Assembly: GCA_041652815.1 (NCBI GenBank)
Contig: JBAZGN010000003.1
Coordinates: 65,530-129,529 of the forward strand
Source: Candidatus Omnitrophota bacterium
GTDB lineage: Bacteria > Omnitrophota > Gorgyraeia > Duberdicusellales > 4484-171
Length of the DNA stretch: 64,000 nt
Direction: 5' to 3'
Below, one piece after another: positions 19,416 to 58,688 of the stretch. The notes beneath the pieces are model-generated. The model ran no database searches. It had not been told where the DNA came from and saw only the letters and a program-made list of their open reading frames with translations. The position numbers and the translations under genes were made by a program. How positions within the stretch are numbered: position 1 is the first letter of the stretch; every line of letters starts with the position of its first letter.

Positions 19416-19503
19416 AATTTTATCCGCCTGCACCATTTGTTAGGATAGTAATAGCTATGACGGGCTTGCTCCTACGCTAAAGCTTCAGAGGACAAGCCGG
19501 CGG

Positions 19504-42485: not shown

Positions 42486-43766
42486 ATGGAATATTTATTT
42501 TTTCTAATTTATGACATAGTGTTTATCTTGGGATTAAGCATTTACCTGCCTTTTTATATCCGAAGGAAAAAAATTAACCTATCCGCCCTTAAGCAAAAAA
42601 TTGGGCTTATCGAAAAAACCGGGTTAGGGCGGCATAATACCATCTGGATTCATGTTGTAAGCGTTGGCGAATTAAATTTAATAGAAAAATTAACAAGAAG
42701 AATACATGAACTTTTCAATTACGAAATAATAATCACAACTACGACTCTTAGCGCTAATTCGCTGGCCAGGAAAAAATACGCCAAACTTGCTAAAATATTT
42801 TTCTTTCCTTTCGATATATCTTTTATTATAAACAAAACAATCAAAGCATTCCGGCCTAAAATATTTATCGCAGCAGAGACAGAACTGTGGCCAAACCTTT
42901 TTTACCGGCTTAAAAAGAAAAATATTCCTATTGTAATAGTAAATGCAAGGATATCCGATAGGGCATTCAAACGTTATAAAATAATACGGCCGTTTATGCG
43001 TAAGGTACTAAAAAAATGCAGCTATATCGGAGTACAAAACGAATCATACAAGAATAGATTTGTCTATCTAGGCGCTAATATAAACACAACACTAATAAGT
43101 GGAAATATGAAATTCGAAAGCCTGGATATAAACGAAAATCAGCTGGATTCCTTACGGAAAAAATATCTAAATTTACTAAAGCAGGAAAATTCATGCCTGA
43201 TTGTAGCCGGCAGCACACACAATCCTGAAGAAGAAAGCTTGCTCGCCGTATACAAGGAAATAAACGCTTTGAGGAAAAACATTTCTTTGCTTATTGCGCC
43301 AAGACATCCAGAAAGAATACCGGTAATAGAAAAAATCGTCAAAGCTTACGGTTTTAATCCCGTAAAAATAAGCGACATCGACAGAATAAGCCAGCAAAGC
43401 AATAATGTTTTTCTGCTCGATACCATTGGTGAATTGCTGTATTTCTATAGTTTTTCGGATATTTCTTTTGTTGGAGGAAGCCTGTCAAATTATGGCGGAC
43501 ACAATATACTTGAGCCGATATTTTTCCTAAAACCTACAATATTCGGGCCAAACATGGCAAATTTCCAAGACATAAAAGAAATAATACTCAAAAACAAAGC
43601 AGGAATACAGATAGAAAATTGCGCCGGGCTGAAAGAAAAACTACTTGAATTGATAGATAACAACTCCCTGCGAAAAGAGCTTTCACTGCATTGCGCCCAG
43701 GTTTTTGAAGAAGAACGTAAAAGCTTGGATGAAAATTTAAAAATAATATTACAATGCGTAAACTGA
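42486..43766 (+). CDS. waaA: 3-deoxy-D-manno-octulosonic acid (Kdo) transferase
   Basis: 426 aa with the N-terminal TM helix and the IWIHVVSVGE motif characteristic of KdtA/WaaA (GT30). Confidence 0.8.
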   Translation: MEYLFFLIYDIVFILGLSIYLPFYIRRKKINLSALKQKIGLIEKTGLGRHNTIWIHVVSVGELNLIEKLTRRIHELFNYEIIITTTTLSANSLARKKYAKLAKIFFFPFDISFIINKTIKAFRPKIFIAAETELWPNLFYRLKKKNIPIVIVNARISDRAFKRYKIIRPFMRKVLKKCSYIGVQNESYKNRFVYLGANINTTLISGNMKFESLDINENQLDSLRKKYLNLLKQENSCLIVAGSTHNPEEESLLAVYKEINALRKNISLLIAPRHPERIPVIEKIVKAYGFNPVKISDIDRISQQSNNVFLLDTIGELLYFYSFSDISFVGGSLSNYGGHNILEPIFFLKPTIFGPNMANFQDIKEIILKNKAGIQIENCAGLKEKLLELIDNNSLRKELSLHCAQVFEEERKSLDENLKIILQCVN

Positions 43767-44761
43767 AAGAGTGGTATGTAAATTTTCTCGAAAAAGAAAA
43801 GAAAAGCATAATTGAGAAAATCATTAATTTTTTTCTTTTCCTGCTTTCGTTAGTTTATGGTGCTGTTATAGCATGTCGAAACTTTCTTTATAACAAGGGT
43901 ATATTTCAAACATATAAATGCCCGAAAAAATTGATAAGTATAGGTAATCTTTCCTGGGGCGGAAGCGGCAAAACCACACTTTCATTTTTTCTTTATGAAA
44001 AATTTATATCTAATTATAAAGTTGCAGTTTTACGCCGAGGCTATGGCTCTGACGAAGGAAAAATGTTTGAAGAGAAAAATATGCAGGTTTTTTCTTCGCC
44101 GAACAGAGTCAAGCTCGCAAAGGGGCTTTCGGATAAATTCGATTTGTTTATCCTGGATGATGGATTCCAGTATCGTAAATTATACCGCGACATAAATATT
44201 CTGGTTATGGCGGCACGTGAACTAAAAACGAAAACGCGGCTGTTGCCTTTAGGTTTTTTCAGGGAACCATTCAAAGCCTTGCGGCGTGCCGATATTCTAA
44301 TAATCAACCATAGAAACGAGCTTAAGCCAATTGATAGACTAATAAATAAACTGCAATCAGATTTTAAGCATTTATCTATATACACAGCAGAATATAAGTT
44401 TAAAAGAATTATAGATACAAAAAATAAAGAAATAGATTTAGGGCTCATAAAAGAAAGGAAAGTCGCCGCAGTTACAGGGATAGGTTACCCTCAGGGATTT
44501 TTTAATAAACTAGAGCAGATAGGCATTAAAATTGATAAAAAAATAACGTATCCTGACCATTACGATTTAACCATCGATGAGTTTAACTCTTTGCAGGAAA
44601 ATCTCATTAAGGATGGCATACGAGATGCCCTCATAACTGGAAAGGACAAATACCATCTGCCAAACGTGGATATAAAGATAAATTTTTATATTTTGGAAAT
44701 AGAAATGGAAATAATCGAAGAACAAAGATTTTTGAATGATTTAAAAAGCCGGCTGCAATAA
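43754..44761 (+). CDS. lpxK: Tetraacyldisaccharide 4'-kinase
   Basis: 335 aa with a P-loop SIGNLSWGGSGKT and the downstream DDGFQ motif of LpxK. Confidence 0.8.
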   Translation: MRKLKEWYVNFLEKEKKSIIEKIINFFLFLLSLVYGAVIACRNFLYNKGIFQTYKCPKKLISIGNLSWGGSGKTTLSFFLYEKFISNYKVAVLRRGYGSDEGKMFEEKNMQVFSSPNRVKLAKGLSDKFDLFILDDGFQYRKLYRDINILVMAARELKTKTRLLPLGFFREPFKALRRADILIINHRNELKPIDRLINKLQSDFKHLSIYTAEYKFKRIIDTKNKEIDLGLIKERKVAAVTGIGYPQGFFNKLEQIGIKIDKKITYPDHYDLTIDEFNSLQENLIKDGIRDALITGKDKYHLPNVDIKINFYILEIEMEIIEEQRFLNDLKSRLQ

Positions 44762-44762
44762 G

Positions 44763-46568
44763 ATGTATTATTTAGCCAAACTCATACAAAAAACTCTGGA
44801 AAAATTGCCATTAGGCGTATGTTTATTATTGGGGCAATTAATAGGTTTTATTTTATCTTTAAACAGGAAAAAGTGGGAAATCTCTTTTAAAAACATAAAA
44901 TCAATATTTCCGCAGAAATCAAATCGTGAAATTAAAGCTATAATTAGACGCTCCTTCCGTAATTTCGGATTAGGCCTTATCGAAAGCTTAATCGCCGCAA
45001 AGCTATACCGCCGTATTGAGCTTCGAGGAAAAGAAAACATAGAGAGCGGCGGTGGGGTTTTAGTTGCAATACATGAAGGCAGCTGGGAACTCTATAATTT
45101 CTTTATTGCAAAGCAGTTAAAATACAAGATGTTTGCAAAAGAACAAAAACAAAAAAATTTCGATAAATTCCTAAGCGAATTAAGAAAAAAATATTCACTC
45201 GGGGTCTGCTTCACGCTAAAAAAAGCTATTCAGGCTCTTTATGATGGCTTTCTTATCGGCATGGTTATCGATCATGGCGCAGAAGATAATGCTTTGATTG
45301 TAGACTTTTTTTCGCACTCTGTGCCAACGCCAAAAGGCGCAGTATATCTCGCCAAAAAGCTTAACAAAAAAATATACCCGTGTTTTGGTTATAGAAAAAA
45401 AGGGTTTTCACATGTAATTGAAATAGGAAAACCAATAAATCCGGCTGAATTGGATGAATATGCACTTTTGACTAAACTCAATAAAATATACGAAAACTAC
45501 CTTAAGGAATATCCGTGGGAATATCTTTGGTTCTATAAAAGATTTAAACGGAAAAAGGATATGGACATATTAATACTTAGCGACGGTAAAGCCGGCCACC
45601 TAAAGCAATCCCAGGCATTTTTGTCTGTTTTAAAGGAAGAGCACCTTATGGTAAGGGGCCAGGTTATAGAAATCAAACCAACCGGAGGAGCCGTAAGGTT
45701 TATTTCTGAGGTTTGCGCTTTTTTTGCAGGAAAACATTGTCTTGGTTGCGGCAGCTGCCTTAATCGCATGACAGATAAAGAAGCATTTGAAAAAATAAAA
45801 AGAACATATGCCGATATTATAGTTTCTACCGGAAGCAGTGTAGCTTACTTAAACCGGATAATTGCATCAACATTAGGAGCAAAGTCAGTCGTAATCTTGC
45901 GCCCGAATACCCCCCTTAGGAAATTTGACCTAAGCATAATCCCTTCGCATGACCGCATAAGTGCCAACAATAGCGTTACGATTAAAGGCGCACTTTCTTA
46001 TCCGGAGGATGTTAACGAGAAAACAGAAAACTGCAAAAAGTTTTTCCATCTAGATTCAAACAAAAAGATTTCGTTTTTTGCCGGGGGATACCTGTCCGAC
46101 AAAAAGAAATATTTGGAAAATTTACAATTGTTCCTGAAAGAACTAAAGAAATTTTCATCTAAAAATAACTTTAAATTGCTTGCAAGCACATCCCGCAGAA
46201 CGCAGAAAGAAATAGAAGAATTGATAGAGAAAGAACTTTATGGCTTTAAGAATTGCGAAGCAATCGTAATCCCAAGTAAAGAAAATTACGATTTTGTATT
46301 CGAAGGATTTGTAAACCTTTCGGAAATAGTTTTTGTAAGCAGCGAAAGTATTTCCATGATTTCTGAAATATTAGCATTAAAAAAACCGTGTGTCTGCGTA
46401 CTTCTTGAACAATACGTGGATAAACATAAAGTTTTTCTGCAATCCTTAGAAAAAGATGTATTTTTTTCAGATAATCCATATAATATAGATGGCATTAAGC
46501 CAACGACTTCATCTATTTTTGATAACAATAAAGCTGTCATAAAAGAAGCGATTAGAAAGTTATTCTAA
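44763..46568 (+). CDS. Fusion protein: lipid A biosynthesis late acyltransferase (LpxL/HtrB family) N-terminal domain plus C-terminal ELM1/DUF1022-like putative GT-B glycosyltransferase domain
   Basis: 601 aa in total. The N-terminal ~290 aa has an LpxL-like TM helix and an HEGSWE motif (the HX4E-type acyltransferase motif). The C-terminal ~300 aa starts with the DILILSDGKAGHLKQSQAF signature. Confidence 0.55.
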   Translation: MYYLAKLIQKTLEKLPLGVCLLLGQLIGFILSLNRKKWEISFKNIKSIFPQKSNREIKAIIRRSFRNFGLGLIESLIAAKLYRRIELRGKENIESGGGVLVAIHEGSWELYNFFIAKQLKYKMFAKEQKQKNFDKFLSELRKKYSLGVCFTLKKAIQALYDGFLIGMVIDHGAEDNALIVDFFSHSVPTPKGAVYLAKKLNKKIYPCFGYRKKGFSHVIEIGKPINPAELDEYALLTKLNKIYENYLKEYPWEYLWFYKRFKRKKDMDILILSDGKAGHLKQSQAFLSVLKEEHLMVRGQVIEIKPTGGAVRFISEVCAFFAGKHCLGCGSCLNRMTDKEAFEKIKRTYADIIVSTGSSVAYLNRIIASTLGAKSVVILRPNTPLRKFDLSIIPSHDRISANNSVTIKGALSYPEDVNEKTENCKKFFHLDSNKKISFFAGGYLSDKKKYLENLQLFLKELKKFSSKNNFKLLASTSRRTQKEIEELIEKELYGFKNCEAIVIPSKENYDFVFEGFVNLSEIVFVSSESISMISEILALKKPCVCVLLEQYVDKHKVFLQSLEKDVFFSDNPYNIDGIKPTTSSIFDNNKAVIKEAIRKLF

Positions 46569-46593
46569 TCCGGATTCATCTAAAAGGAAAATT

Positions 46594-48687
46594 ATGCGCA
46601 TAATGCAAATTTTACCACGTATGGAAGTGGGCGGGGTTGAACGCGGAGTTCTAGACTTGGCTATTTATTTCAAAAAAACGCAAGCCGCCAGCGTTGATGC
46701 CAGCATAGAAAATATTGTCATAAGCGGCGGCGGAAGGCTGATAAAAGAGCTGGAAAAAGAAGATATTACGCATTATGAACTTCCCGTATATAAAAAATCA
46801 CTTTTTTCCCTATTTCTCATTCCTAAACTTAAAAAAATAATCGATAAAGAGAAAATAAACATTATTCATGCGCGTTCAAGAGTTCCCGGGTGGCTAAGCT
46901 TTTTCGCCTCCCGGGGAAAAAGCGCCTGCTTTGTCACAACAATTCACGGGATTTATAAAAACAAATCATCCAGCGAAGTCATGGGGTGGGGGAAATTCGT
47001 AATTTGCCCATCACGAGCTGTTGCGCGGCACATGAAAGAGAAATTCTTTGTACCGGAAGAAAAAATCGTTGTTATCAACCGCTGGGTTAATCTGAATAAA
47101 TTCAAATTTACCGAGAGCCACAAACGAAAACAAAGCAATACCGTTGTAAGCATAGGACGAATATCGCCTTCCAAAGGTTATGAATATCTGATAGAAGGTT
47201 TTAAGAAAGTCATACGCCAAAACCCTTATTTAAAACTTAAAATAGTAGGTTCCCCGGATAAAACAAAAATGGATTACTTCCAGCACTTAAAAACGTTAGT
47301 TAATCGTTTTTCCCTAAACCATAACGTGGAATTTTTGGGGTTTAGGCAAGACATCGAAAACGTACTTAGCGAAGCAAAGATAGCAGTGTCGTCATCCGTG
47401 ATAGATGAAGCTTTTCCAAGGAGCGTGCTGGAAGCTTCAGCCTGCGGCATACCGATAATTGCAACGCAAGTTGGAGGAGTATCCGAAATAATTGAAAACG
47501 AAGTAAACGGCATAATGGTTGAACCAAAAAATAGCGAAGCAATAGCCAGAGCCATATTGAAACTAGCGGATGATACAGCTTTAGCCGATATAATTGCTCA
47601 AAAAGGCAGGGAAAAAATCGAGAGAATGTATTCAATGGAAAAATCCCTTAAGGAAACAGCTCAAGTTTACAGCCAAGCTTTAAGCCTAAAACGTATTCTA
47701 GTAATTAAAACCTCTTCCCTTGGAGATATTATTCTTGCAATACCATCATTTAAAGCTCTTAAAGAAAATTTTCCGGAAGGCAAAATCAGTGTCCTGGTCC
47801 TTAAAAAGTATGCTGCTATTCTTTACGGTTGCCCTTATATCGATGAAATAATAACACTGGAAAATGACTATAAACGCCTGAAAAATATTTTAGCCATAAC
47901 AAAGGAATTACGCAGAAAATCTTTCGACTACATAATAGACCTGCAGAACAACCGTGCATCGCATCTGATTTCTTTTCTAACCTTTCCTCAATATTCTTTC
48001 GGCTATTTGCGTAAATGGGGAATATTACTTACAAAGCATATAAGATATGTACGTAATCTCGATCCGCTTTCTTCCCAGGAAAAGATCTTGGAACTTATCG
48101 GCGCCCGCATCAAAGAAAAAAAGTTGACCTTTTGGGATATAAAAACCGATATTTCGGAAAAATTTTTGGGAAACGAAGAAAACTTAATAGGAATAAATAT
48201 ATCTGCTTCAAAAAAATGGCTTACCAAAAACTGGCCGGTAAGCCATATAAAATCGCTTATTGAACTCATAAATAAAAATTTACCCTTGTACAAAGTCGTC
48301 CTATTGGGCGACCCTGACAGTAAAAGGATTACTACGGAGATAGAGTCAACCGCAGTAAGAGCGCCTGTTAATTTATGCGGCAAAACAAACCTACAGGACT
48401 TGCCGTCGGTAATTAAACGGTTAAAAGTTTTTATCACTCCTGATACAGCCACGCTTCATCTCGCGCAGGCCTTAGGCGTACCCACAATTGGCCTTTTTGG
48501 CCCGACAGACCCGCTCCGGCATACCGTAAAAAGCAAAAATCTTTATATAATCTGTAAAGAGCTGCTTTGTTCTTTTTGCTATAACCCGAAGTGCAAGCTT
48601 GACAAGATAAATTTGTGTATGGAAAAAATATCTGCACAGGAAGTGTTCTCGCAAATCAAAGAAATAACCACATTCGAAAAACCGTAA
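46594..48687 (+). CDS. Bifunctional glycosyltransferase fusion: GT4 (GT-B, retaining) N-terminal domain plus GT9 heptosyltransferase-like C-terminal domain
   Basis: 697 aa in total. Residues ~1-360 have the GT4 E-x7-E region (EAFPRSVLEASACGIPIIATQVGG). Residues ~365-697 start with ILVIKTSSLGDIILAIPSFKALKENFP, the GT9 N-terminal signature. Confidence 0.65.
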   Translation: MRIMQILPRMEVGGVERGVLDLAIYFKKTQAASVDASIENIVISGGGRLIKELEKEDITHYELPVYKKSLFSLFLIPKLKKIIDKEKINIIHARSRVPGWLSFFASRGKSACFVTTIHGIYKNKSSSEVMGWGKFVICPSRAVARHMKEKFFVPEEKIVVINRWVNLNKFKFTESHKRKQSNTVVSIGRISPSKGYEYLIEGFKKVIRQNPYLKLKIVGSPDKTKMDYFQHLKTLVNRFSLNHNVEFLGFRQDIENVLSEAKIAVSSSVIDEAFPRSVLEASACGIPIIATQVGGVSEIIENEVNGIMVEPKNSEAIARAILKLADDTALADIIAQKGREKIERMYSMEKSLKETAQVYSQALSLKRILVIKTSSLGDIILAIPSFKALKENFPEGKISVLVLKKYAAILYGCPYIDEIITLENDYKRLKNILAITKELRRKSFDYIIDLQNNRASHLISFLTFPQYSFGYLRKWGILLTKHIRYVRNLDPLSSQEKILELIGARIKEKKLTFWDIKTDISEKFLGNEENLIGINISASKKWLTKNWPVSHIKSLIELINKNLPLYKVVLLGDPDSKRITTEIESTAVRAPVNLCGKTNLQDLPSVIKRLKVFITPDTATLHLAQALGVPTIGLFGPTDPLRHTVKSKNLYIICKELLCSFCYNPKCKLDKINLCMEKISAQEVFSQIKEITTFEKP

Positions 48688-48700
48688 GCGTAGATAAAAG

Positions 48701-49774
48701 ATGAGGATACTGCTTATCTCAACCCACTTAAATGCCGGTGGTATTTCCCGTTATATACTCACGCTCGCCAAAGGCCTTAAAAAAAACGGGCACGAGGTGT
48801 GGGTTTCATGCGCACCACACGGAGAGTGGCTTACGAGGCTAGAGGAAGAAGGCATCTCCTATATAACCATACCGATAAAAACAAAATCTATATTAAGCAT
48901 AAAGATATTAATTTCCTTTTTCATCCTCGCTAAATTCATAAAAAAAGAAAAAATCGATATCATTCATTCTAACAGCCGGGTTACCCAGTTCTTAGGGTTT
49001 CTTTTGTATAAATTCACGCGCGTTCCATATGTAGCCACTTTCCACGGATTTTACCGTAAAAGCCATGCCAGAAAAACATTAAAATTCGAAGGATTACGAA
49101 CCATTGCAATCAGCCAAAATGTAAAAACGCATTTATCACAGGATTTAAATATCCCGGAAGAAAAAATACGGGTTGTTTATAACGGTGTTTGCCGCGAGGA
49201 ATTTTCCCTCCGTAAAAAAACAAAAACAGATTACGGGTTCAAAGAAAATGATTTTGTCATCGGCATCCTGGGGCGGTTTTCCGAAGAAAAAGGGCATTTC
49301 CTGGCGATTGAAGCATTTAAGCTTCTCTCAGACAAGCATAGCAACGTCTATCTTGCAATATCAGGCAAAGGAAGGCTCAAGGAAGAACTAAAAACGTTCA
49401 TAAGACTAACCGATATTGAAAATAGAACAAAATTCTTTGACATGGAAGCTAAGGATTTTCTTGATATTCCGGATATATTGATTGTTCCCTCAAGAAGAGA
49501 AGGATTCGGCTATGTCATAATAGAAGCATTATTAAAAGAAGTCCCGGTAATTGCCTTTAACGGTGGGGCTATTTCTGAAATAATAAAAAATGAGAAGAAC
49601 GGTTTACTTTTTAATAAATATGAAGGTTTTTGCTTAAAACAAGCGATAGAACAGCTTATGTCTGATAGGCCGCTGCGGGAAAGAATCGTAAAAAAAGCAA
49701 AAGAAGACGCACAGATTTTCTCAATGGAGAATATGGCATTAAACACGGAAAAGGTATACAAAGAAGTCTTATGA
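48701..49774 (+). CDS. Glycosyltransferase family 4 protein (LPS core)
   Basis: 357 aa with an N-terminal LLISTHLNAGGISRY and a C-terminal EGFGYVIIEALLKEVPVIAFNGGAISEII. Confidence 0.75.
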   Translation: MRILLISTHLNAGGISRYILTLAKGLKKNGHEVWVSCAPHGEWLTRLEEEGISYITIPIKTKSILSIKILISFFILAKFIKKEKIDIIHSNSRVTQFLGFLLYKFTRVPYVATFHGFYRKSHARKTLKFEGLRTIAISQNVKTHLSQDLNIPEEKIRVVYNGVCREEFSLRKKTKTDYGFKENDFVIGILGRFSEEKGHFLAIEAFKLLSDKHSNVYLAISGKGRLKEELKTFIRLTDIENRTKFFDMEAKDFLDIPDILIVPSRREGFGYVIIEALLKEVPVIAFNGGAISEIIKNEKNGLLFNKYEGFCLKQAIEQLMSDRPLRERIVKKAKEDAQIFSMENMALNTEKVYKEVL

Positions 49775-50589
49775 AATTTAAGGCGCATGACCAAAAATCA
49801 AAAACCGGAAAGAATCAATCAAAAGCATTTTGCGTAAGAATAATTTTTGGCCTAATTTTAGTTATCGCTTTTACATTCTATGCATATATATATATTAATT
49901 ATAAGACCCCTATACTTATGTATCATTCCTTTGATGATTCCCGGATTAAAGACTTTGCAGCAGTTTCTAATGCAAATTTTTATAAGCAAATGAAGTTTAT
50001 AAAAGAAAAAGGCTATAAAGTTATATCTTTGAATAATTATTGCCAGTTACTCAAAGATAAAAAGCCTATATCGAAGAATTTGGTTGTATTAACAATTGAT
50101 GACGGATATAAAGATAATTTAGAAGCTATAGAAATATTGAAAAAATTTGATTTTCCGGCGACCTTATTTATAACCGTTGACCGTATAGGAAAACCGGGAT
50201 TTCTCTCGGAAAAAGATATACGCTTAATTTTACAGGAAACAAAAATAACCATAGGTTCGCATACGGCAACGCATCCTGACCTCCCTCAAGTTTCAGACGC
50301 AGAACTTAAAAACGAAATTTCTAGCCCAAAACATAAGCTTGCGCGGCAATTCACAACCAAAATAGAAACCATAGCTTATCCGGGAGGAGCATACGATGAA
50401 AGGGCATTGAAGGAAGTTGAAAGCGCAGGATATCTTTGCGCTTGCACAACAAACAGAGGATTTTCCAAAAAACTTAACAGATTCTCCCTACGCAGGGTAA
50501 AAATGACCAATCGCGATACCGAGTTTAGCCTTTGGTCTAAATTGAGCGGTTTTTATAACTTTTTCAAAAAACCTAAGAAACCGTATTAA
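49771..50589 (+). CDS. Polysaccharide deacetylase (CE4 family)
   Basis: 272 aa with an N-terminal TM helix, a NodB motif (TIDDGYKDN) and HTATHPDL. Confidence 0.7.
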   Translation: MKFKAHDQKSKTGKNQSKAFCVRIIFGLILVIAFTFYAYIYINYKTPILMYHSFDDSRIKDFAAVSNANFYKQMKFIKEKGYKVISLNNYCQLLKDKKPISKNLVVLTIDDGYKDNLEAIEILKKFDFPATLFITVDRIGKPGFLSEKDIRLILQETKITIGSHTATHPDLPQVSDAELKNEISSPKHKLARQFTTKIETIAYPGGAYDERALKEVESAGYLCACTTNRGFSKKLNRFSLRRVKMTNRDTEFSLWSKLSGFYNFFKKPKKPY

Positions 50590-50590
50590 G

Positions 50591-51601
50591 ATGAAACGAA
50601 TTCTTGTCGTAAATGTAAACTGGCTTGGCGATGCGATAATGACGACACCCGCCTTTAAGGCAATAAAAGAAAAATTCCCTTCTTCTTTTGTCGCAGTAAC
50701 GGCGCCTGAAAGAGTAAAAGAGGTATTCAGCGATAATCCCCATATCGATGAAGTAATAATTTTTGATGAAAAGAAAAACCAAAAAGCTTTTTCACAAAAA
50801 TTACGTTTCATACAACAATTACGAGCAAAAAAGTTTGACACAGCTTTTCTTATACACCGTTCATTTACTCGTGCCCTTATCTGTCTTCTTTCCGGAATAA
50901 AGGTAAGAATCGGCTACAGAAGGCTTAAGAATATATTCATAGTAAACAAGATGATTAATCCACCGGCAAAAAATATACATAAACAGGATTATTACCTATA
51001 TCTATTTGAAAAAGCTGCAATAGCTATTGCCGATAAGTTGCCCAAAGTGTATATTCAACAGCAAATACAGGAAAAATACAAAGCCGACATATCTATCATA
51101 CGCCAAAAACACACCTATCTTGTAGGCGTGAATCCTTCTGCAAACTGGCTGCTTAAACAATGGCCCCAAGAAAACTTTGCAATACTTTGCGATAAGCTCA
51201 TAAGAGAATTAAACTGCGGCATTCTTTTTATCGGTGCCAAGATTGATACAGCTATAGTCGACGGAGTTATTAATAAAATGGTAGGGGATGCCTATAATTT
51301 CTGCGCAAAAACAAATATAAAAGAACTTGCAGCAATAATAAAAAATGTTGATTTGTTTATATCCAATGACTCTGGCCCGGCACATTTATCTGCCTCGCTT
51401 GGAGTTAACACCCTTGTATTATTCGGGCCAACATCGTCCAAGCTTAGTGCGCCACGCGGCAAGGCAGTACAAATCTTAGAGAAATCCATACATTGCGAAA
51501 TACCGTGCTATAGTACAAGCTGCCAGGACAATCTTTGCATAAAAAATATAACAGTAGAGGACGCCTACATCAAAGCAAAAGAGTTTTTGAAAAATGTTTA
51601 A
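50591..51601 (+). CDS. Glycosyltransferase family 9 (LPS heptosyltransferase-like)
   Basis: 336 aa with an N-terminal ILVVNVNWLGDAIMTTPAFKAIKEKFP and a C-terminal FISNDSGPAHLSASLGVNTLVLFGPT. Confidence 0.7.
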   Translation: MKRILVVNVNWLGDAIMTTPAFKAIKEKFPSSFVAVTAPERVKEVFSDNPHIDEVIIFDEKKNQKAFSQKLRFIQQLRAKKFDTAFLIHRSFTRALICLLSGIKVRIGYRRLKNIFIVNKMINPPAKNIHKQDYYLYLFEKAAIAIADKLPKVYIQQQIQEKYKADISIIRQKHTYLVGVNPSANWLLKQWPQENFAILCDKLIRELNCGILFIGAKIDTAIVDGVINKMVGDAYNFCAKTNIKELAAIIKNVDLFISNDSGPAHLSASLGVNTLVLFGPTSSKLSAPRGKAVQILEKSIHCEIPCYSTSCQDNLCIKNITVEDAYIKAKEFLKNV

Positions 51602-52532
51602 AAACATAATCGTAAACCTGCCAAGCAATATCGGAGATACTATTTTAACGCTTCCAGCTCTCAACCGGCTCCACTTAAACTACCCGCAGGCAAAATTAAC
51701 TTTAATTTGCTCAAAACAAACACAAGAGTTTCTTTCGCATTACTCTGATGCTAACGAAACGCTTCTCTTCGATAAACGCTGGCCGGCAATGCGAAAATTT
51801 AAATTTTCGCTTAGCTTACGCCAAAAATACGACCTTATTGTCGATTTTAAAAATTCACTTTTACCATTATTTACCGGGGCGAAACGAACTCCATTTTTTA
51901 GAAAGTTTACGAAAAACTTGCCCGCAAAAGATAGATATCTTTATCTGATAAAAGATATCGCGCCAATTGATGCAAAAAAAACTGCACAATTTTTACTCAC
52001 GGAAGACGAAGAAAAAAAATGGAAATTGCCGCAAATTGAACAATCCGTATTCGTTGCCTGCGCATCGAATGCGCTTCAAAAACGCTACCCCTATAACCTA
52101 CTTAAAGAACTTGTAAAAAATCTTGCCAAACGCACGCCGGTTACGATATTGGGGCAGGAAGCAGACAGACAATTCTATAAAGATATTTTAAACATTCCCG
52201 GCGTAAATGACCTTGTCGGAAAAACAAAAATCCACGAAGTCTTTTATCTTCTAACGGCATACGCGCGCTTACTTGTATGCGTAGATTCAAGCATAATGCA
52301 TATCGCAAGCTACCTTGACATACCAATAGTAGCAATGTTTGGGCAAACCAGCGTTCTTAAATACGGCCCTTGGTCAAAAAAATATATTGTAGTGAAAAGA
52401 GACGACCTCGATTGTGTGCCTTGCGAAAATCCACATTGCCGGTTTAATCATGAATGCATGGAAATAGACCCAAAGCGCGTGCTTAGCGCGATAGATAAAT
52501 TAAACCCAAATAATCATGGAACAAATACGTAA
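51594..52532 (+). CDS. Glycosyltransferase family 9 (LPS heptosyltransferase-like)
   Basis: 312 aa with an N-terminal NIGDTILTLPALNRL and a C-terminal VCVDSSIMHIASYLDIPIVAMFGQT. Confidence 0.7.
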   Translation: MFKNIIVNLPSNIGDTILTLPALNRLHLNYPQAKLTLICSKQTQEFLSHYSDANETLLFDKRWPAMRKFKFSLSLRQKYDLIVDFKNSLLPLFTGAKRTPFFRKFTKNLPAKDRYLYLIKDIAPIDAKKTAQFLLTEDEEKKWKLPQIEQSVFVACASNALQKRYPYNLLKELVKNLAKRTPVTILGQEADRQFYKDILNIPGVNDLVGKTKIHEVFYLLTAYARLLVCVDSSIMHIASYLDIPIVAMFGQTSVLKYGPWSKKYIVVKRDDLDCVPCENPHCRFNHECMEIDPKRVLSAIDKLNPNNHGTNT

Positions 52533-53541
52533 AAAAATATTAATAATGCGTACGGATAGATTAGGGGATGTAATTCTCTCTACGCCCGCGATAGCAAACT
52601 TACGTAAATTCTATCCCGATAGCTATATTGCCTTTCTCTGCAGGCCATACACAAAAGAAGTTATAGAAGGCAATCCCCATCTAGATGAAATTATTATCTA
52701 TGACAAAAATAAAGAACATAAAAGCATTTTTGCATCAATAAAATTCTGCCTTGCCTTGCGTAAAAAAAAGTTTGATACTGTTTTTATCTTAAATCCAAAT
52801 AACCGCTCAAACATAATTGCATTATTTGCTGGTATTCCAGAGCGTATTGGGTTAAACCGGAAAATGGGTAGGCTGTTGACTCATCCTATAGAAGATAAGA
52901 AACATGAAGGAAAAAAACACGAGCTGGAATATACTTTGGACATCCTAAAAGAAGCCGGGGTTACAATTACAGAGAAACACACTTATTTTCCGATAAAAAA
53001 AGAATCGGAGGAACGGATAGAGGATTTGCTCGTAACGCATGGGATAAAAAATAATTCATTTTTAGTGATTCATCCTTCTGCCTCATGCCCGTCAAAACGC
53101 TGGCCGCAGGATTACTTCGTAAAACTGATAAGATTAATAAACGAAAGAACAAACTTAAGAATAGTTTTAATAAGTGCAGAGAATGAAAAGAAATTTGCTG
53201 ATAGCCTGGTAAAAGAAAAAAATACAATAGACCTAAGAGGGATTTTAAGCATTTCGGATATAGGTGCGCTTCTTAAACGCTCAAAACTATTCATATCAAA
53301 CGATTCAGGGCCTGTGCATATTGCGGCAAGCTTAAATTGCCCTGTGATTTCTATCTTCGGAAGGAATGACCCAGGCCTTTCACCTGTACGTTGGAGGCCG
53401 CTTGGTGAAAAATCATTTTATATCCATAAAGGAAATTCTTGCAAAAATTGCCTAGCTCATAATTGCGTTTTGGGTTTTCTGTGCCTTAAATCCATAACAC
53501 CGGAAGAAGTATTTGCTTTGGCCTTAAAAATATTAGAATAA
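52516..53541 (+). CDS. Glycosyltransferase family 9 (LPS heptosyltransferase-like)
   Basis: 341 aa with an N-terminal ILIMRTDRLGDVILSTPAIANLRKFYP and a C-terminal FISNDSGPVHIAASLNCPVISIFG. Confidence 0.7.
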   Translation: MEQIRKKILIMRTDRLGDVILSTPAIANLRKFYPDSYIAFLCRPYTKEVIEGNPHLDEIIIYDKNKEHKSIFASIKFCLALRKKKFDTVFILNPNNRSNIIALFAGIPERIGLNRKMGRLLTHPIEDKKHEGKKHELEYTLDILKEAGVTITEKHTYFPIKKESEERIEDLLVTHGIKNNSFLVIHPSASCPSKRWPQDYFVKLIRLINERTNLRIVLISAENEKKFADSLVKEKNTIDLRGILSISDIGALLKRSKLFISNDSGPVHIAASLNCPVISIFGRNDPGLSPVRWRPLGEKSFYIHKGNSCKNCLAHNCVLGFLCLKSITPEEVFALALKILE

Positions 53542-53598: not shown

Positions 53599-54786
53599 AT
53601 GAAAAAGGTTAAGCGGATTTTAATTATATCTTCCGACAAACACTTAAGCGATATTCTTCATTTCTGTTTCGACGGCTGGGGATACGAAGTTTTTGTACAC
53701 GAACCGAACATAGACGATATAATTGTAATTAAAAAAATATCACCTGACGCGATAGTAATAGACGTACATTCTGCAACCAAATCGCATCTTGAAATATGCA
53801 GGCTCCTTAAAGAAGATTTCATTACCGCTCTTATACCTATAATTGCTTTAATAAATAAAAGGCAGCTTAGAGAACAGCTTCTCACCTTAAAACAAGGAGT
53901 CGATGATTACTTGATAAAGCCTCCCGACCCACTGGACTTAAGAACACGCATAGAAATCGCGATAAAACGCTCGCAGTATAGCTTTTATTCAAGCCCTTTA
54001 ACCGGGCTTCCGGGTGCGCGGCTCATCGAAGATATCGTGAAAGAAAGAATCGAAAAAAATACTCCTTTTTCTTTCGCCCATATAGACATCGATAACTTTA
54101 AATCCTTTAATGATGTTTACGGCTACATAAAAGGCGACAAAGCCCTTATGCAAACTGCCTACATACTTTACAGCGTAATCAAGAAAATCGGAAATGCTGA
54201 TGATTTTATGGGCCATATAGGCGGTGATGATTTTGTTTTTATCACAACTCCCGATAAACATAAGGAAATTTGCCGCTATTTTATTTTTATGTTTGATAAC
54301 CTTATACCGTACCACTACTCAAAAAAAGATAGGGAACAGAACTTCGTAATTGCACGTAACCGTGCAAAACAGATAAGAAAAATGCCCCTTATGAGTGTAA
54401 CAATAGCTGTAGTGAATAAAAATAAACCAAATGAATTCAAGAATATAGTAGAAATCAACGAGAGGATAGCAGAGGTAAAAAAATATTTGAAAACTGTTCC
54501 GGGCAGCAAGTTTATGGCAGACAGGCGTACTTCTACCAATGACAAAGAAGACCTGCAGGTTTATAAAAAAGAGGACTTCTTTATAAACTCATACAAACCG
54601 ATAGGCCAAATCCTAATCGAACAACATAAGATAACCGGGGCACAGCTGGAAGAAGCCCTTACGGCAAATTGGAAGAGAGGAATAATACTGGGAGAAATAC
54701 TTCGAGATTGCGGCTTTGTAACCGAAGAGGACATTGAAAAAGCTTTAAAGATACAAAAAGAAATTCTTGAAAAATCGCGCAGCTGA
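53599..54786 (+). CDS. Response-regulator receiver domain / GGDEF-family domain (motif GGDDF) / C-terminal MshEN-like (T2SSE_N) c-di-GMP-binding domain
   Basis: 395 aa with an N-terminal REC-like domain (ILIISSDKH...AIVIDVHS...LIKP). The central domain has DIDNFKSFND and HIGGDDFVFI, which is GGDDF in place of GG[DE]EF. The C-terminus carries two 24-aa motifs of the MshEN consensus, IGQILIEQHKITGAQLEEALTAN and ILGEILRDCGFVTEEDIEKALKIQ. Confidence 0.65.
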   Translation: MKKVKRILIISSDKHLSDILHFCFDGWGYEVFVHEPNIDDIIVIKKISPDAIVIDVHSATKSHLEICRLLKEDFITALIPIIALINKRQLREQLLTLKQGVDDYLIKPPDPLDLRTRIEIAIKRSQYSFYSSPLTGLPGARLIEDIVKERIEKNTPFSFAHIDIDNFKSFNDVYGYIKGDKALMQTAYILYSVIKKIGNADDFMGHIGGDDFVFITTPDKHKEICRYFIFMFDNLIPYHYSKKDREQNFVIARNRAKQIRKMPLMSVTIAVVNKNKPNEFKNIVEINERIAEVKKYLKTVPGSKFMADRRTSTNDKEDLQVYKKEDFFINSYKPIGQILIEQHKITGAQLEEALTANWKRGIILGEILRDCGFVTEEDIEKALKIQKEILEKSRS

Positions 54787-54810: not shown

Positions 54811-54838
54811 TTGACAGGAAAAGGTTTATTGCTATACT
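54811..54838 (+). promoter_or_regulatory. Putative sigma70 promoter of the hydrogenase cluster (TTGACA-N16-TATACT)
   Basis: TTGACA at 54811-54816 and TATACT at 54833-54838. Confidence 0.5.
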
Positions 54839-54895: not shown

Positions 54896-55936
54896 ATGAT
54901 CAACAAATATTTATATATAAAAAACAACAATTTTTTAAGGCTTCTGGATAATTTATCTGCGGATTATAAAGTATTTACACCACAAGAAACACGAAAAAAC
55001 TATTTCTGGAAAGAATATAAAGGCGCCTTTGAATTCTCTAAATACCGCTCAGTAACGAACCTCAGGCAATTCTTTACGCCTGCCGTAGAACAAATCGATA
55101 ACTATTTTGGCTCGAATAAAGCTCAAGAAAGAAAACCCATCTGCATCGTTGGCGCAAAGGCATGCGACCTCGGGAATGCCCTTAAAATACACGATTATGT
55201 TTTCCTTGAAGGAGACGTTGATAGTGCCTATAAACAACTAAGAGAAAAAAATCTCATAATTTCCAGTGACTGTACTGCCTTTAAGGAAACTTGCTTCTGC
55301 CTTGCCTTGGGTAATATGCCATACCCGGAAGAATTATTCGATTTAAACATTTCATGCGTAAACGATGGTTACCTTGTGGAAATCGGTTCTAAAAAAGGAG
55401 AAGGTACTGTAGCTTCAAATAAAAGCCTTTTTGAAACAGTAAATGACACAACACTTAAAGAACGTGAGAATAACCGAAATAGCGTAACGAAAGAATTCCG
55501 CTGTCAAATAGAACCCCTGGAATTTCCGAAAGATTCATTGCTTTATAATCTTATAAAAAACGGTTACGGCGATAAATTATGGCCTGAAGAAGCTTTAAAA
55601 TGCGTTGAATGCGGCGCTTGCATTATGAACTGCCCAACCTGCCATTGTTTTCTTTTATTTGATACAAAAGATAAGGACGGATATTTCAAGGGAAGGGTTT
55701 GGGACGGTTGCCAATATAAAAATTTCACACGCGTTGCCGGAGGCGCTAATGCGCTTAGGCTACGCGAACAAAGACTGCGTAACCGTTATATCAAAAAATT
55801 CGAATTTTTCCCTGAAAGAATAAAATTATATGCCTGCACGGGATGCGGTAGGTGCGTTGAAGGCTGCCCTGCGAAAATAGATATACGAAAAATTTTTAAG
55901 CTACTCAACGAAAATCAAAATAGCGCTAAAAAATGA
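54896..55936 (+). CDS. Iron-sulfur oxidoreductase subunit, AsrA / sulfhydrogenase-beta (HydB)-like
   Basis: 346 aa with C-terminal 4Fe-4S motifs CVECGACIMNCPTCHC and CTGCGRCVEGCP. Its size and cysteine pattern match AsrA/HydB-type subunits. Confidence 0.55.
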   Translation: MINKYLYIKNNNFLRLLDNLSADYKVFTPQETRKNYFWKEYKGAFEFSKYRSVTNLRQFFTPAVEQIDNYFGSNKAQERKPICIVGAKACDLGNALKIHDYVFLEGDVDSAYKQLREKNLIISSDCTAFKETCFCLALGNMPYPEELFDLNISCVNDGYLVEIGSKKGEGTVASNKSLFETVNDTTLKERENNRNSVTKEFRCQIEPLEFPKDSLLYNLIKNGYGDKLWPEEALKCVECGACIMNCPTCHCFLLFDTKDKDGYFKGRVWDGCQYKNFTRVAGGANALRLREQRLRNRYIKKFEFFPERIKLYACTGCGRCVEGCPAKIDIRKIFKLLNENQNSAKK

Positions 55937-56745
55937 GCATATATCTACCGAATAAAGCAACAATTACCAATATAATCGAGGAAACCCCGACAATAAAAAC
56001 TTTTGTCTTTAAGCCTGTTGATTCTTTTTCTTTTAAAACAGGCCAATTTATTGAATTAAGCTATCCGGGTATAGGCGAAGCGCCCTTTACGCCGTCTTCT
56101 GACCCAAATAATAAAAAAGCTTTCGAGGTAACCATAATGAAGGTAGGCAAAGTAACGGAACTGTTTCATAAAGCAAAAATAGGGGATTGTTTAGGCATGC
56201 GCGGGCCTTACGGAAACGGCTATCCGGTTGATAGTTTTAAAAACAAAGAACTTTTGATAGTTGGCGGAGGCGTGGGCTTAGCACCACTGCGCTCATTGAT
56301 TTATGCCCTTTACAACCGCATAAATGATTTTAAAAAAATAGTTATATGCTACGGGGCACGCAGCCCTCAGGATATTGTATATAAATATCTTCTTGAAGAG
56401 TTTAAAAAACCAAAAAATGTAGAATTCAGGCTTACTGTCGATAGAGCCGACAACACCTGGAAAGGAAACGTAGGTATTGTGACAACTCTTTTAGAAAAAT
56501 TGCCTTTGGATATTAAACAAGCCACGGGTATAGTTTGCGGGCCGCCGATTATGATGAAATTCGCAAGCCTTAAACTCTTAGAACTGGGTTTTTCTCCAAA
56601 AAACATACACTTATCCATGGAAAAGAACATGAGTTGCGGCTTGGGTAAATGCGGCCATTGCCGGCTTGGCAAATACTATATATGTAAAGACGGCCCTGTT
56701 TTTATATTCGATGATATAAAAGATATGTGGGACATTTGGGATTAG
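55933..56745 (+). CDS. FAD/NAD(P)-binding oxidoreductase subunit, AsrB / sulfhydrogenase-gamma (HydG) / PyrK-like, with a C-terminal 2Fe-2S site
   Basis: 270 aa with an FNR-like beta-barrel (GQFIELSYPG), an NAD(P)-binding GGGVGLAPL and a C-terminal CGLGKCGHC cluster. Confidence 0.65.
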   Translation: MSIYLPNKATITNIIEETPTIKTFVFKPVDSFSFKTGQFIELSYPGIGEAPFTPSSDPNNKKAFEVTIMKVGKVTELFHKAKIGDCLGMRGPYGNGYPVDSFKNKELLIVGGGVGLAPLRSLIYALYNRINDFKKIVICYGARSPQDIVYKYLLEEFKKPKNVEFRLTVDRADNTWKGNVGIVTTLLEKLPLDIKQATGIVCGPPIMMKFASLKLLELGFSPKNIHLSMEKNMSCGLGKCGHCRLGKYYICKDGPVFIFDDIKDMWDIWD

Positions 56746-56820
56746 AAAAAAGGCTAAGGTTAAATCTGAAGTTGAGTTAAAAATAGCGCCTTAACCTAAA
56801 CCTTAACTTCAACCTTTTTA
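56746..56820. repeat. GGTTAAG/CTTAACC-type inverted repeat element, possibly related to the one at 1786-1852
   Basis: The sequence aaaaaaGGCTAAGGTTAAatctGAAGTTGAGTTAA...CCTTAACCTAAACCTTAACTTCAACC forms an imperfect hairpin. It shares the k-mers TCAACCTT, TAAACCT and AAAAAGG with the 1786-1852 element. Confidence 0.35.
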
Positions 56821-56825
56821 AAGAA

Positions 56826-57320
56826 ATGAAAAGAATATTGCTAGATTTAGAGAAATGCGATAACTGCCCTGAGTGTGTCGTTAAATGCAGTTATATTTAT
56901 CATCCCCAAAATAAAGGAATAACCTCCTTGAGGGAATTCGCAACCTTTGCCGTTGTCTGCCACAGGTGTGAAGAAGCCCCTTGCATTAATTCGTGCTACC
57001 ACAATGCGCTGGCGAAGGACGAAAATAAAATAATAAAACGGGCAAAATTTTTATGCACCTCCTGCAAAACCTGTACACATGCTTGCCCTTTTGGAGTAAT
57101 ATTCGATGATTTCCTGGATTTCCTTGATTCAAAATGTGATTTTTGTATTGGTAGAAATAAACATCTGTGCATCGAAACTTGCACACATAAAGCATTAGAA
57201 ATCCTGGACATCGACAAAGATGATATAGCTCAGAATACTTACGTTATCTCTGATTATCTTGCAATTAAGCATCCGAAAAAATGGTTCCTTGATGATAAAG
57301 TGCTCTATAAGAAAAAATAA
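56826..57320 (+). CDS. 4Fe-4S ferredoxin-like electron-transfer subunit
   Basis: 164 aa with several Cys motifs (CDNCPECVVKC, CHRCEEAPCINSC, CTSCKTCTHACP, CDFCIGRNKHLCIETC). Confidence 0.6.
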   Translation: MKRILLDLEKCDNCPECVVKCSYIYHPQNKGITSLREFATFAVVCHRCEEAPCINSCYHNALAKDENKIIKRAKFLCTSCKTCTHACPFGVIFDDFLDFLDSKCDFCIGRNKHLCIETCTHKALEILDIDKDDIAQNTYVISDYLAIKHPKKWFLDDKVLYKKK

Positions 57321-57322
57321 TA

Positions 57323-58252
57323 ATGATAAAGATGATTTTACAGTATTTAATTTTCCCTGGCCTGGCATTTTGTTTCTTTATGGGCGCTATGGGTTTCTGG
57401 CTTGAAAGAAAACTAACTGCCCGCTTCCAGTATCGAGTGGGCCCGCCCTGGTATCAGAATTTTATTGACGTAATGAAATTATTTCTAAAAGAAACAATGA
57501 TACCGCGCGATGCGACAAAAACTATTTTTATAGCTTCACCAATTATAAGTTTATCGGCAGTAATTTTAGTAAGTATAATACTGGCAAATAATTACTTTCT
57601 AAACATAAGTTTTATCGGCGATGTTATCGTAATTTTATATTTACTGCTCATACCATCGCTTTTCATTATTCTCGGCGCACTTTCCTCAAAAAACCCCTTA
57701 GCGCTTGTGGGGGCCGCAAGAGAAACAAAACTTATGCTTGCTTACGAATTTGTATTTATCGCAAGCTTAATAATTGCGATAATTAAATCGGGTAATTCAA
57801 TTATGATGGCGGACATAATCGGTATCCAGATACTAAATAAACCTAATATAGCCAGTTTCTCAGGCGCAATCGCCTTTGTGCTGGCTATTTTTTATGCTCA
57901 GGCAAAATTAGGTATAGTGCCGTTTGATATGGCTGAAGCAGAGCAGGAAATTATGGCAGGTACTGTAATTGAGTATTCCGGGCCGCTTCTCGGCTTTTAT
58001 AAAATATCAAAATTAATGCTTTATTTTTCCCTGCCGTTATTTATAATTTCCTTATTCGTAAAAATTTCTGTAGAATCTGCATTTTTAAGATATTTAATAT
58101 TTTTTGCAGAATATATACTTATCATTTTTATTATGTCTGTAATTAAAAATATAAATCCAAGGCTGCGGATAAAAGATGCTTTGGGATTTTTTTGGTTTTT
58201 ACTTTTTCCTCTTGGAATTTTGGGTATAATTTTGGCGCAATTCGGACTATAA
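57323..58252 (+). CDS. Membrane subunit of an energy-converting hydrogenase, NuoH/HycD/EchB family
   Basis: 309 aa, polytopic, with a NuoH-like motif near the N-terminus (WLERKLTARFQYRVGP). Confidence 0.7.
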   Translation: MIKMILQYLIFPGLAFCFFMGAMGFWLERKLTARFQYRVGPPWYQNFIDVMKLFLKETMIPRDATKTIFIASPIISLSAVILVSIILANNYFLNISFIGDVIVILYLLLIPSLFIILGALSSKNPLALVGAARETKLMLAYEFVFIASLIIAIIKSGNSIMMADIIGIQILNKPNIASFSGAIAFVLAIFYAQAKLGIVPFDMAEAEQEIMAGTVIEYSGPLLGFYKISKLMLYFSLPLFIISLFVKISVESAFLRYLIFFAEYILIIFIMSVIKNINPRLRIKDALGFFWFLLFPLGILGIILAQFGL

Positions 58253-58686: not shown

Positions 58687-58688
58687 AA

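Follow-up and report, generated by a model that had tools for sequence, protein, structure and literature searches.

The DNA analyzed here, called the window below, is a stretch of 64,000 nucleotides from a Candidatus Omnitrophota bacterium (GenBank assembly GCA_041652815.1, contig JBAZGN010000003.1, positions 65,530 to 129,529 of the forward strand). At window positions 53599 to 54786, exactly where the first-pass annotation of this DNA had placed it, a complete open reading frame (ORF) encodes a three-part protein. Its receiver (REC) domain is followed by a GGDEF-fold domain, in which the signature motif reads GGDDF, and by a tail of 53 residues arranged as 24+5+24, like the MshEN_N module of cyclic di-GMP (c-di-GMP) receptors. 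The gene and its parts are as follows.

53599..54786, + strand: complete ORF, 395 amino acids plus stop codon
53611..53973, + strand: pseudo-receiver (REC fold), residues 5-125, aligned to YycF and MtrA
53995..54528, + strand: GGDEF-fold domain of the GGDDF subfamily, residues 133-310 (PF00990, Foldseek and signature residues)
54193..54204, + strand: position of the inhibitory I-site (RxxD in PleD), here N199-A-D-D202, Arg absent in the PleD alignment
54220..54234, + strand: GGDDF active-site motif, residues 208-212, preceded by H206, which is Arg in canonical cyclases
54529..54597, + strand: linker, residues 311-333, weakly conserved, predicted local distance difference test (pLDDT) score 62-65
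54598..54669, + strand: MshEN_N motif I, residues 334-357, PIGQILIEQHKITGAQLEEALTAN (NF053729, MshE alignment)
54670..54684, + strand: spacer WKRGI, residues 358-362, W358 invariant in the close family
54685..54756, + strand: MshEN_N motif II, residues 363-386, ILGEILRDCGFVTEEDIEKALKIQ (NF053729, MshE alignment)

Domain architecture

Sequence, profile and fold matches bear out the REC-GGDEF-MshEN architecture that the first-pass annotation had proposed. The strings that it quoted are likewise present in the protein: IISSD (residues 9-13), IVIDVH with D55, GGDDF (208-212), IGQILIEQHKITGAQLEEALTAN at residues 335-357 and ILGEILRDCGFVTEEDIEKALKIQ at residues 363-386. The protein passes fold, homology and curated hidden Markov model (HMM) tests and fails strict membership tests, namely those for a phosphorylatable receiver, a canonical GG(D/E)EF motif and the published MshEN binding motif. 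Each of the three domains shows homology to the family whose name it bears, and the protein is, by fold and descent, a REC-GGDEF cyclase with an MshEN_N module. The AlphaFold2 (AF2) model of the whole protein has a mean pLDDT of 81.8.

An identical protein is already public as MCK9615166.1 / MFA5305177.1, under the name 'diguanylate cyclase [Candidatus Omnitrophica/Omnitrophota bacterium]'. The GGDEF-MshEN fusion is undescribed in the literature searched: full-text searches found no description of such a fusion and nothing relevant on c-di-GMP in Omnitrophota.

Homology and fold of the MshEN-type tail

The NCBIfam model NF053729 ('cyclic di-GMP-binding domain, MshE-related') covers residues 334-386 end to end (model positions 1-53 of 53). 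Its cutoff is 38 bits; the full-length sequence scores 48.7 bits and the isolated tail 54.1 bits, and all six short-form tails tested also pass. The tail alone aligns in register to Vibrio cholerae MshE (5HTL) at E = 3.3e-4, with K333 falling on K8, a match well outside what chance would give, and a profile of tails from diverse relatives matches the N-domains of PilF, PilB, MshE and XpsE with E values from 1e-10 to 1e-64. The tail-only AF2 model forms four helices (pLDDT 89.1) and superimposes on c-di-GMP-bound MshE (5HTL) with a deviation of 0.7 Å across 56 columns (36% identity; probability, 1.0), and MshEN/GSPII/PilB N-domains account for all of the 17 best PDB matches. In addition, relatives of about 480 amino acids carry the 53-residue motif followed by PF05157. 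These longer relatives also match the PilB N terminus and the c-di-GMP-sensing MshEN region of NfrB, a region that the tail matches as well. The MshEN-type nature proposed for the tail is thus upheld by the family model, the in-register alignment to MshE, the fold match and the ~480-residue relatives.

PF05157 (T2SSE_N/MshEN) itself gives no match on the window protein. The first-pass annotation had named such a miss as evidence against an MshEN tail, which was a mis-specified test: PF05157 models the region after the 53-residue motif (MshEN_C of Wang et al.), and this region has been lost here. Because the model covers a part that the protein lacks, the miss does not refute the tail. The protein ends nine residues past motif II, the MshEN_C / T2SSE_N1 subdomain is absent, and the protein belongs to the 'MshEN_N only' class of Wang et al.

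Word-indexed homology searches yielded one match for the 70-residue tail; the tail profile A2 returned mostly short contig-edge fragments and DUF4388 proteins. As a separate observation, many DUF4388-only (PF14332) proteins of about 243 residues (P0288-P0317) match the MshEN_N tail profile at E values of ~1e-18 to 1e-21. DUF4388 is listed beside MshEN in MXAN_2809 (Wang et al.).

Fold and active site of the GGDDF domain

The cyclase domain aligns to PF00990 at 53.6 bits (cutoff, 23.8), and TIGR00254 recognizes the window protein at 53.3 bits (cutoff, 37.4). The PF00990 alignment, which the first-pass annotation had named as a check on this domain, was obtained for the N-terminal half only: it spans residues 133-220 and profile positions 5-92 of 161. 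In Foldseek comparisons, the AF2 model superimposes on complete canonical GGDEF domains with template modeling (TM) scores of 0.7-0.82 (normalized to the target) over ~185 aligned columns. This superposition indicates that the half unseen by Pfam still has the standard GGDEF fold, and a complete, palm-like GGDEF fold is present in the model. A kinship with the Cas10 palm (GGDD) was considered and rejected, as it amounted to a single weak, sub-threshold match in one relative (E = 0.0078).

Residue conservation was counted in 150 representatives of the REC-GGDDF family, numbered by alignment to PleD; the active-site motif could be scored in 147 of these. The mapped positions are listed below.

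D163, PleD D327 (metal binding): 147 of 150 representatives
K168, PleD K332: 146 of 150 representatives
N171, PleD N335 (guanine reader): 147 of 150 representatives
D180, PleD D344 (guanine reader): 141 of 150 representatives, Asn in 6
H206, PleD R366 (His replacing Arg): 145 of 150 representatives

The domain fails a test for the motif [G/A/S]G[D/E]E[F/Y], having GGDDF instead. Among the scorable representatives, the motif reads GGDDF in 130 and AGDDF in 15, and GGDEF or GGEEF in none; the fourth residue is Asp in 145/147, a pattern that includes the window protein. The motif had been called degenerate in the first-pass annotation. It is instead the invariant hallmark of a large, multi-phylum subfamily and, judged from this conservation, the signature of a selectively maintained active site and not a product of decay. 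The I-site and catalytic residues, which the annotation had singled out for inspection, gave a divided answer: the inhibitory RxxD I-site, which many but not all GGDEF domains carry five residues ahead of the motif, is absent, Arg occurring at the position of PleD R359 in only 4/150 representatives, and the catalytic and guanine-binding residues that can be mapped are conserved. An active cyclase is likely, since the metal- and guanine-binding residues are invariant and the RxxD I-site is missing.

These counts bear directly on the idea, also raised in the first-pass annotation, that the protein is a pure c-di-GMP receptor with a catalytically dead GGDDF domain. Such a role would fit the loss of REC input described below and the treatment of GGDDF as degenerate or probably inactive in other papers, which concern several proteins, PA3258, Bordetella DdpB and a Streptomyces EAL-GGDEF protein among them. 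However, dead GGDEF receptors usually keep RxxD and lose active-site residues, and the reverse is seen here: the I-site Arg is nearly always missing, yet D163, K168, N171, D180 and GGDD are near-invariant across many phyla. Moreover, the GGDDF domain of Geobacter GSU1937 is active, having made cyclic GMP-AMP (cGAMP) and c-di-GMP in biosensor assays (PMC8835794). Since the motif is invariant, the catalytic and guanine-binding residues are conserved and GSU1937 is active, the pure-receptor alternative is improbable to a high degree.

The activity of GSU1937 brings in a different alternative, in which the GGDDF subfamily makes another nucleotide, such as cGAMP (Hypr-like) or a linear dinucleotide, and the tail senses that product or c-di-GMP as a cross-signal. 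GSU1937, the sole GGDDF enzyme tested, is a Hypr cGAMP synthase; the active site of the subfamily differs systematically from that of canonical cyclases (E to D, R to H, H to Y or F); and the ligand-contact residues of the tail, discussed below, are unlike those of c-di-GMP binders. The Hypr determinant is nevertheless missing: the guanine-reading position (PleD D344 / GacA S348) is D180 here, not Ser, and Asp is found there in 141/150 representatives. N171 and D180 are the canonical guanine readers, and PilZ and HD-GYP proteins are encoded next to the gene in some relatives. D180 rather than Ser argues for GTP specificity, and because the Hypr Ser is absent, c-di-GMP is the expected product. 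Synthesis of another nucleotide therefore appears very improbable.

Several observations weigh against catalysis. The Asp of GGDDF is shorter than Glu and could impair cross-dimer catalysis, according to the authors of the GSU1937 work (PMC8835794), and the literature searched held no active GGDDF example besides GSU1937. A His replaces Arg two residues ahead of the motif. Furthermore, the C-terminal half of the domain has diverged so far that the phosphate-binding residues (PleD K442 and R446) cannot be placed by sequence: sequence and profile alignments to solved GGDEF domains end at about residue 216-239. With these points set against the conserved residues, we consider it probable that the protein, as a dimer, converts GTP to c-di-GMP.

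A receiver domain that has lost phosphorylation residues

The solved receivers YycF and MtrA match residues 5-125 at E = 7e-14, and this region of the AF2 model shows five alternating strands and helices. PF00072, the Pfam model suggested for this domain in the first-pass annotation, scores 27.4 bits, slightly under its gathering cutoff (GA 30.2). The alignment to YycF and MtrA agrees with that annotation on two points. The phospho-acceptor Asp in IVIDVH (D55, end of beta-3) is retained and invariant, as is the conserved Lys (K107, end of beta-5), and S11-S12 stand at the Mg2+-binding acidic pair that follows beta-1 (DD of YycF and MtrA), being nearly invariant in the close family. I85 is aligned to the conserved Thr at the end of beta-4, found in PIIMLTAK of YycF. 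IISSD and LIN are conserved in 120 relatives.

The domain has thus lost three of the five residues of phosphorylation chemistry. With the acidic pair and the Thr gone, it is best described as a pseudo-receiver in which phosphotransfer is unlikely, and it probably acts as a phosphorylation-independent scaffold or dimerization domain. The receiver also aligns about equally well to the non-phosphorylated adaptor D2 of PleD (residues ~155-277) and to the phosphorylatable D1. The likeness to D2 is consistent with an adaptor-like role.

Non-canonical receivers occur in 11/14 tail-bearing and 23/122 tail-less representatives (Fisher p = 1.2e-5, shared ancestry ignored). The prospect that the tethered MshEN_N module took over the regulatory role is about even.

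Possible c-di-GMP binding by the tail

To evaluate the tail as a ligand-binding module, MshE residues were mapped onto the window protein and 120 close relatives.

MshE G11, here G336: kept, 120 of 120
MshE G40, here G365: kept, 120 of 120
MshE G47, here G372: kept
MshE Q61, here Q386 (motif II Gln): kept
MshE L10, here I335: stacking hydrophobic, kept
MshE L25, here L350: stacking hydrophobic, kept
MshE L29, here L354: stacking hydrophobic, kept
MshE L39, here L364: stacking hydrophobic, kept
MshE L54, here I379: stacking hydrophobic, kept
MshE L58, here L383: stacking hydrophobic, kept
MshE R9, here P334: changed, Pro in 120 of 120
MshE G18, here H343: changed, variable in the family
MshE I19, here K344: changed, variable in the family
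MshE Q32, here N357: changed, His in 115 of 120
MshE K33, here W358: changed, a new invariant Trp in the family
MshE R38, here I363: changed, mostly I, L, M or V in the family

The replacements at R9, G18, I19 and Q32 count against binding, as do the motif tests. The strict MshEN motif, RLGxx(L/V/I)(L/V/I)xxG(L/V/I)(L/V/I)xxxxLxxxLxxQ, is not found in the tail, and neither is the relaxed version of Wang et al., which is missed at positions 10 (H) and 11 (K) of motif I and positions 1 (I) and 7 (R) of motif II. Among the close relatives, 115/120 have no match at all to the relaxed motif; the long-form relative P0130 passes it in both halves. In GSPII-A of PilF, moreover, binding required the reversal of three changes, which include a His at position Q32 and a Ser at position R38 (PMC12002112).

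Other published data show how far the motif can vary. GSPII-B of PilF, a 6 nM binder, has a motif II that naturally begins with Leu (L196), which the hydrophobic residue at motif II position 1 of the tail resembles. Of the GSPII-B variants, L196R binds less tightly, whereas binding is retained by K167L and, at 0.5-1 µM, by single Q-to-E mutants (PMC11731258). An isolated MshEN_N subdomain is able to bind c-di-GMP (PMC12002112).

The tail could accordingly be read in a second way: the cyclase is active, and the tail is a degenerate, non-binding MshEN_N kept for structure, dimerization or partner docking, like the N-domains of XpsE, Xanthomonas citri PilB and PilF GSPII-A. The failed strict and relaxed motifs and the changes at R9 (Pro), Q32 (His/Asn), G18 and I19 speak for such a tail; XpsE has I19R too, and the His at the Q32 position is shared with the non-binder GSPII-A. 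Degenerate MshEN domains are known as protein-docking modules, and STAS-PilZ genes adjoin the cyclase gene in some relatives. The known non-binders, however, lack a motif Gly (XpsE G11V and G40L; GSPII-A A41), and here both glycines are invariant in 120/120 relatives and the exposed hydrophobic triangles are kept. Six of six short-form tails pass NF053729. As for docking, X. citri PilZ binds mainly to ND1 (= MshEN_C), which is absent here, and no STAS-PilZ homolog was found in the window. We regard a non-binding tail as a rather doubtful reading. For binding of c-di-GMP by the tail, the sequence comparisons leave the chances about even.

Distribution of the family and origin of the tail

More than 100 full-length relatives of ~395 amino acids were found at identities of at least 60%, and those with a name are nearly all Omnitrophota. 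They share IISSD in the REC domain, GHIGGDDF in the cyclase domain and the tail pattern P-x-G...L...L..H-W...G. An exhaustive search of 1.84 billion cluster representatives returned 813 at E <= 1e-30, most of which align to residues ~5-311 only, so the REC + variant-GGDEF module is a large family of its own. This module also occurs as stand-alone proteins of ~310 amino acids, in fusions to an EAL (754 amino acids) or ROK (661 amino acids) domain, after triple REC arrays, and at the end of GAF-PAS-HisKA-HATPase-3xREC hybrid kinases, where the motif is AGDDF together with DLDNLK and YGYAKAD (P0144, P0192, P0147 and P0137 for these fused forms). In a scan of one genome per species, the family was found in Omnitrophota, Clostridia, Chloroflexota, Gemmatimonadota, Elusimicrobiota, Nitrospirota and others, as well as in Actinomycetota, including cultured Micromonospora and Salinispora.

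A neighbor-joining tree of the cyclase domain alone places all 17 tail-bearing proteins within one 19-leaf clade, with the short forms nested among the long forms. Because the tail-bearers form one clade and the short forms lie within the long ones, a single acquisition of MshEN followed by loss of MshEN_C is suggested; the tree fits a tail derived from a complete MshEN that entered this clade a single time, its MshEN_C half being lost later.

One Nitrospirota homolog (L066, 3986-5617) is split into two ORFs (3986-4936 and 4985-5617), and tblastn covers query residues 4-386 across it. The split reflects a frameshift, a pseudogene or faulty assembly.

Genomic context

The first-pass annotation had placed the gene between a lipopolysaccharide (LPS) core cluster and a hydrogenase operon, and this setting is confirmed. 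Upstream is a lipid A/core LPS cluster, and the genes downstream form a NiFe-hydrogenase/complex-I-like cluster. The neighboring features are the following.

42486..53541, + strand: lipid A/core LPS cluster, co-oriented and upstream, ending 57 nt before the gene
54811..54838, + strand: sigma-70-type promoter-like site, TTGACA, 16 nt, TG-TATACT (11 of 12 matches; consensus match only)
54896-61915, + strand: hydrogenase/complex-I-like cluster, which also follows the GGDDF gene in locus L004

The LPS cluster encodes a 3-deoxy-D-manno-octulosonic acid (Kdo) transferase, LpxK, an acyltransferase, glycosyltransferases (GT) of the types GT4-GT9 and GT4, a deacetylase and three GT9 enzymes. The order from GT4 through the three GT9 genes to the GGDDF gene is repeated in relatives at 80% and 72% identity and not in those at 61-64% (loci with the same order: L002/L003, 1-6940; L004, 1-5964). 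Two further features were seen at this cluster. At window positions 44763-46568 (+), a single ORF encodes a fusion of a PF03279 domain (lipid A biosynthesis acyltransferase) with a PF06258 domain (ELM1-like), and directly upstream of the cluster, at 41603-42481 (+), lies a gene for an XerC/XerD-type tyrosine recombinase (Phage_integrase + SAM-like N-domain).

The downstream cluster encodes a Fer4_22 protein, an FAD/NAD oxidoreductase with a DHODB-type Fe-S domain and a Fer4_11 protein, as well as NuoH-, NuoB-, NuoC- and NuoD/NiFe-large-subunit-like proteins and an antiporter-like subunit. It looks like a group-4-type membrane hydrogenase or a complex-I-like system. The promoter-like site lies within the 109-nt gap ahead of the Fer4_22 gene. 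Because this near-consensus site intervenes, the downstream, hydrogenase-like cluster is predicted to have its own promoter and to be transcribed separately. A coupling of the cyclase to this cluster is unlikely, given the intervening site and the presence of other downstream genes in the 72%-identical relative. Elsewhere in the window, an RnfA-like + RnfB-like gene pair lies at 18807-20373 (+). An 'HDIGK' string at 19504-20373, considered as a possible HD-GYP, is a chance match, since the ORF encodes the RnfB-like Fe-S protein.

In other lineages the neighbors of the gene point to c-di-GMP. STAS-PilZ homologs adjoin a tail-bearing cyclase gene at three loci (L005, 7230-7952; L011, 5442-6161; L008, 2723-3439), belonging to three Omnitrophota lineages and 32-55% identical to one another; L011 holds a long-form relative, and L008 is from Candidatus Gygaella. 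At L005 the STAS-PilZ gene begins 3 bp past the cyclase stop codon. Such a neighbor is found at 3/15 tail-bearing and 0/72 tail-less loci. A REC-AraC regulator follows the cyclase gene in L006 and L007, and L006 also has a PAS-GGDEF-HD-GYP protein; L005, L006 and L007 belong to the relatives at 61-64% identity. The PilZ and HD-GYP neighbors of relatives support a role in c-di-GMP signaling and do not define a single output. A tail serving as a PilZ-docking module, by analogy to PilB-PilZ of X. citri, is a weakened proposal, with ND1 (MshEN_C) absent and the window lacking a STAS-PilZ homolog.

Discussion

Networks of c-di-GMP are usually depicted with different proteins making, degrading and sensing the messenger, and product feedback in cyclases is credited to the RxxD I-site. 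MshEN is the second most widespread c-di-GMP receptor domain. The protein studied here is an I-site-less cyclase with a decayed receiver input, and it carries a module homologous to the MshEN receptor.

Its closest counterparts in the PDB, by sequence and by fold, are PleD (Caulobacter crescentus), WspR (Pseudomonas aeruginosa) and DgcR (Leptospira), in which a receiver likewise precedes a GGDEF domain and which share the metal- and guanine-binding residues. Unlike these enzymes, the window protein has GGDDF in place of GG(D/E)EF, His for Arg, no RxxD I-site, a C-terminal cyclase half that Pfam does not recognize, a REC domain without the acidic pair and Thr, and an extra MshEN_N. GSU1937 of Geobacter sulfurreducens, compared by its published description, shares the GGDDF motif. 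It differs by its N-terminal membrane domain, by the Hypr Ser at the position of Asp in the window protein, and by its product, cGAMP (PMC8835794).

With MshE (5HTL) and GSPII-B of PilF (8PDK), the tail has in common the 24+5+24 layout and the four-helix fold, at a root mean square deviation of 0.7-0.8 Å. The module is C-terminal and on a cyclase here, whereas theirs is N-terminal and on an ATPase; in addition, the window tail lacks MshEN_C (T2SSE_N1) and has an invariant Trp after motif I. The MshEN_N-only proteins of Wang et al. (2016), including Bd2402 (REC-MshEN_N-UNK), cce_1044, EpsG and Glov_2742, hold the same module without MshEN_C in signaling fusions, some with REC. The MshEN and MshEN_N fusions that Wang et al. 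list comprise REC, HD-GYP, CheA, CheX, adenylate cyclase, Ser/Thr kinase, glycosyltransferase and others; in contrast to the window protein, none has a GGDEF domain, and the sole c-di-GMP turnover enzyme among them is the HD-GYP of MXAN_2809. NfrB of Escherichia coli, a c-di-GMP-activated glycosyltransferase, is regulated by an MshEN that is C-terminal, as here. In NfrB, however, MshEN controls the glycosyltransferase that carries it, and the cyclase DgcJ is a protein of its own, whereas in the window protein MshEN_N and the cyclase form one chain. The cyclase gene of the window lineage is linked to glycosyltransferases, recalling the enzyme type of NfrB.

Taken as a whole, the protein is read as an active, I-site-less GGDDF cyclase with a pseudo-receiver and an MshEN_N tail that is its likely regulator and may sense c-di-GMP. 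Read from the sequence, this combination falls just on the probable side. In the most likely mechanism, one c-di-GMP would be bound across the two 24-residue motifs of the tail, which would give a cyclase without an I-site its own product-sensing site, for feedback or local signaling. Feedback specifically, through product binding by the tail, is a tentative proposal, one that the first-pass annotation had also raised in suggesting a self-sensing or feedback-regulated cyclase. An adjacent STAS-PilZ protein is the probable reader of the signal in some lineages; the window lineage has the gene at the end of the LPS-core glycosyltransferase cluster. Two findings temper this reading: the association between tail and REC degeneracy was computed without phylogenetic correction, and the gene neighborhood is not conserved across the family, the neighbors varying at 61-64% identity.

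A broader and bolder generalization would make GHIGGDDF proteins a distinct class of active diguanylate cyclases without an I-site. In an Omnitrophota-centered clade, MshEN_N would then replace receiver control and bind the enzyme's own product, with Pro, His and Trp as contacts instead of Arg and Gln, as a modular 'I-site in trans' through which c-di-GMP synthesis is controlled by feedback or within a local pool. We offer this version as speculative and consider it unlikely as it stands.

If the tail does bind c-di-GMP, it would represent a second, modular route to product sensing in cyclases, and the sequence rules for MshEN binding would be extended by the Pro, His and Trp variants. The GGDDF hallmark, present in hundreds of protein clusters from many phyla, argues against scoring GGDDF proteins as inactive, as is commonly done in genome censuses. 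The family itself appears to be a conserved part of signaling in the Omnitrophota, a phylum with almost no experimental biology.

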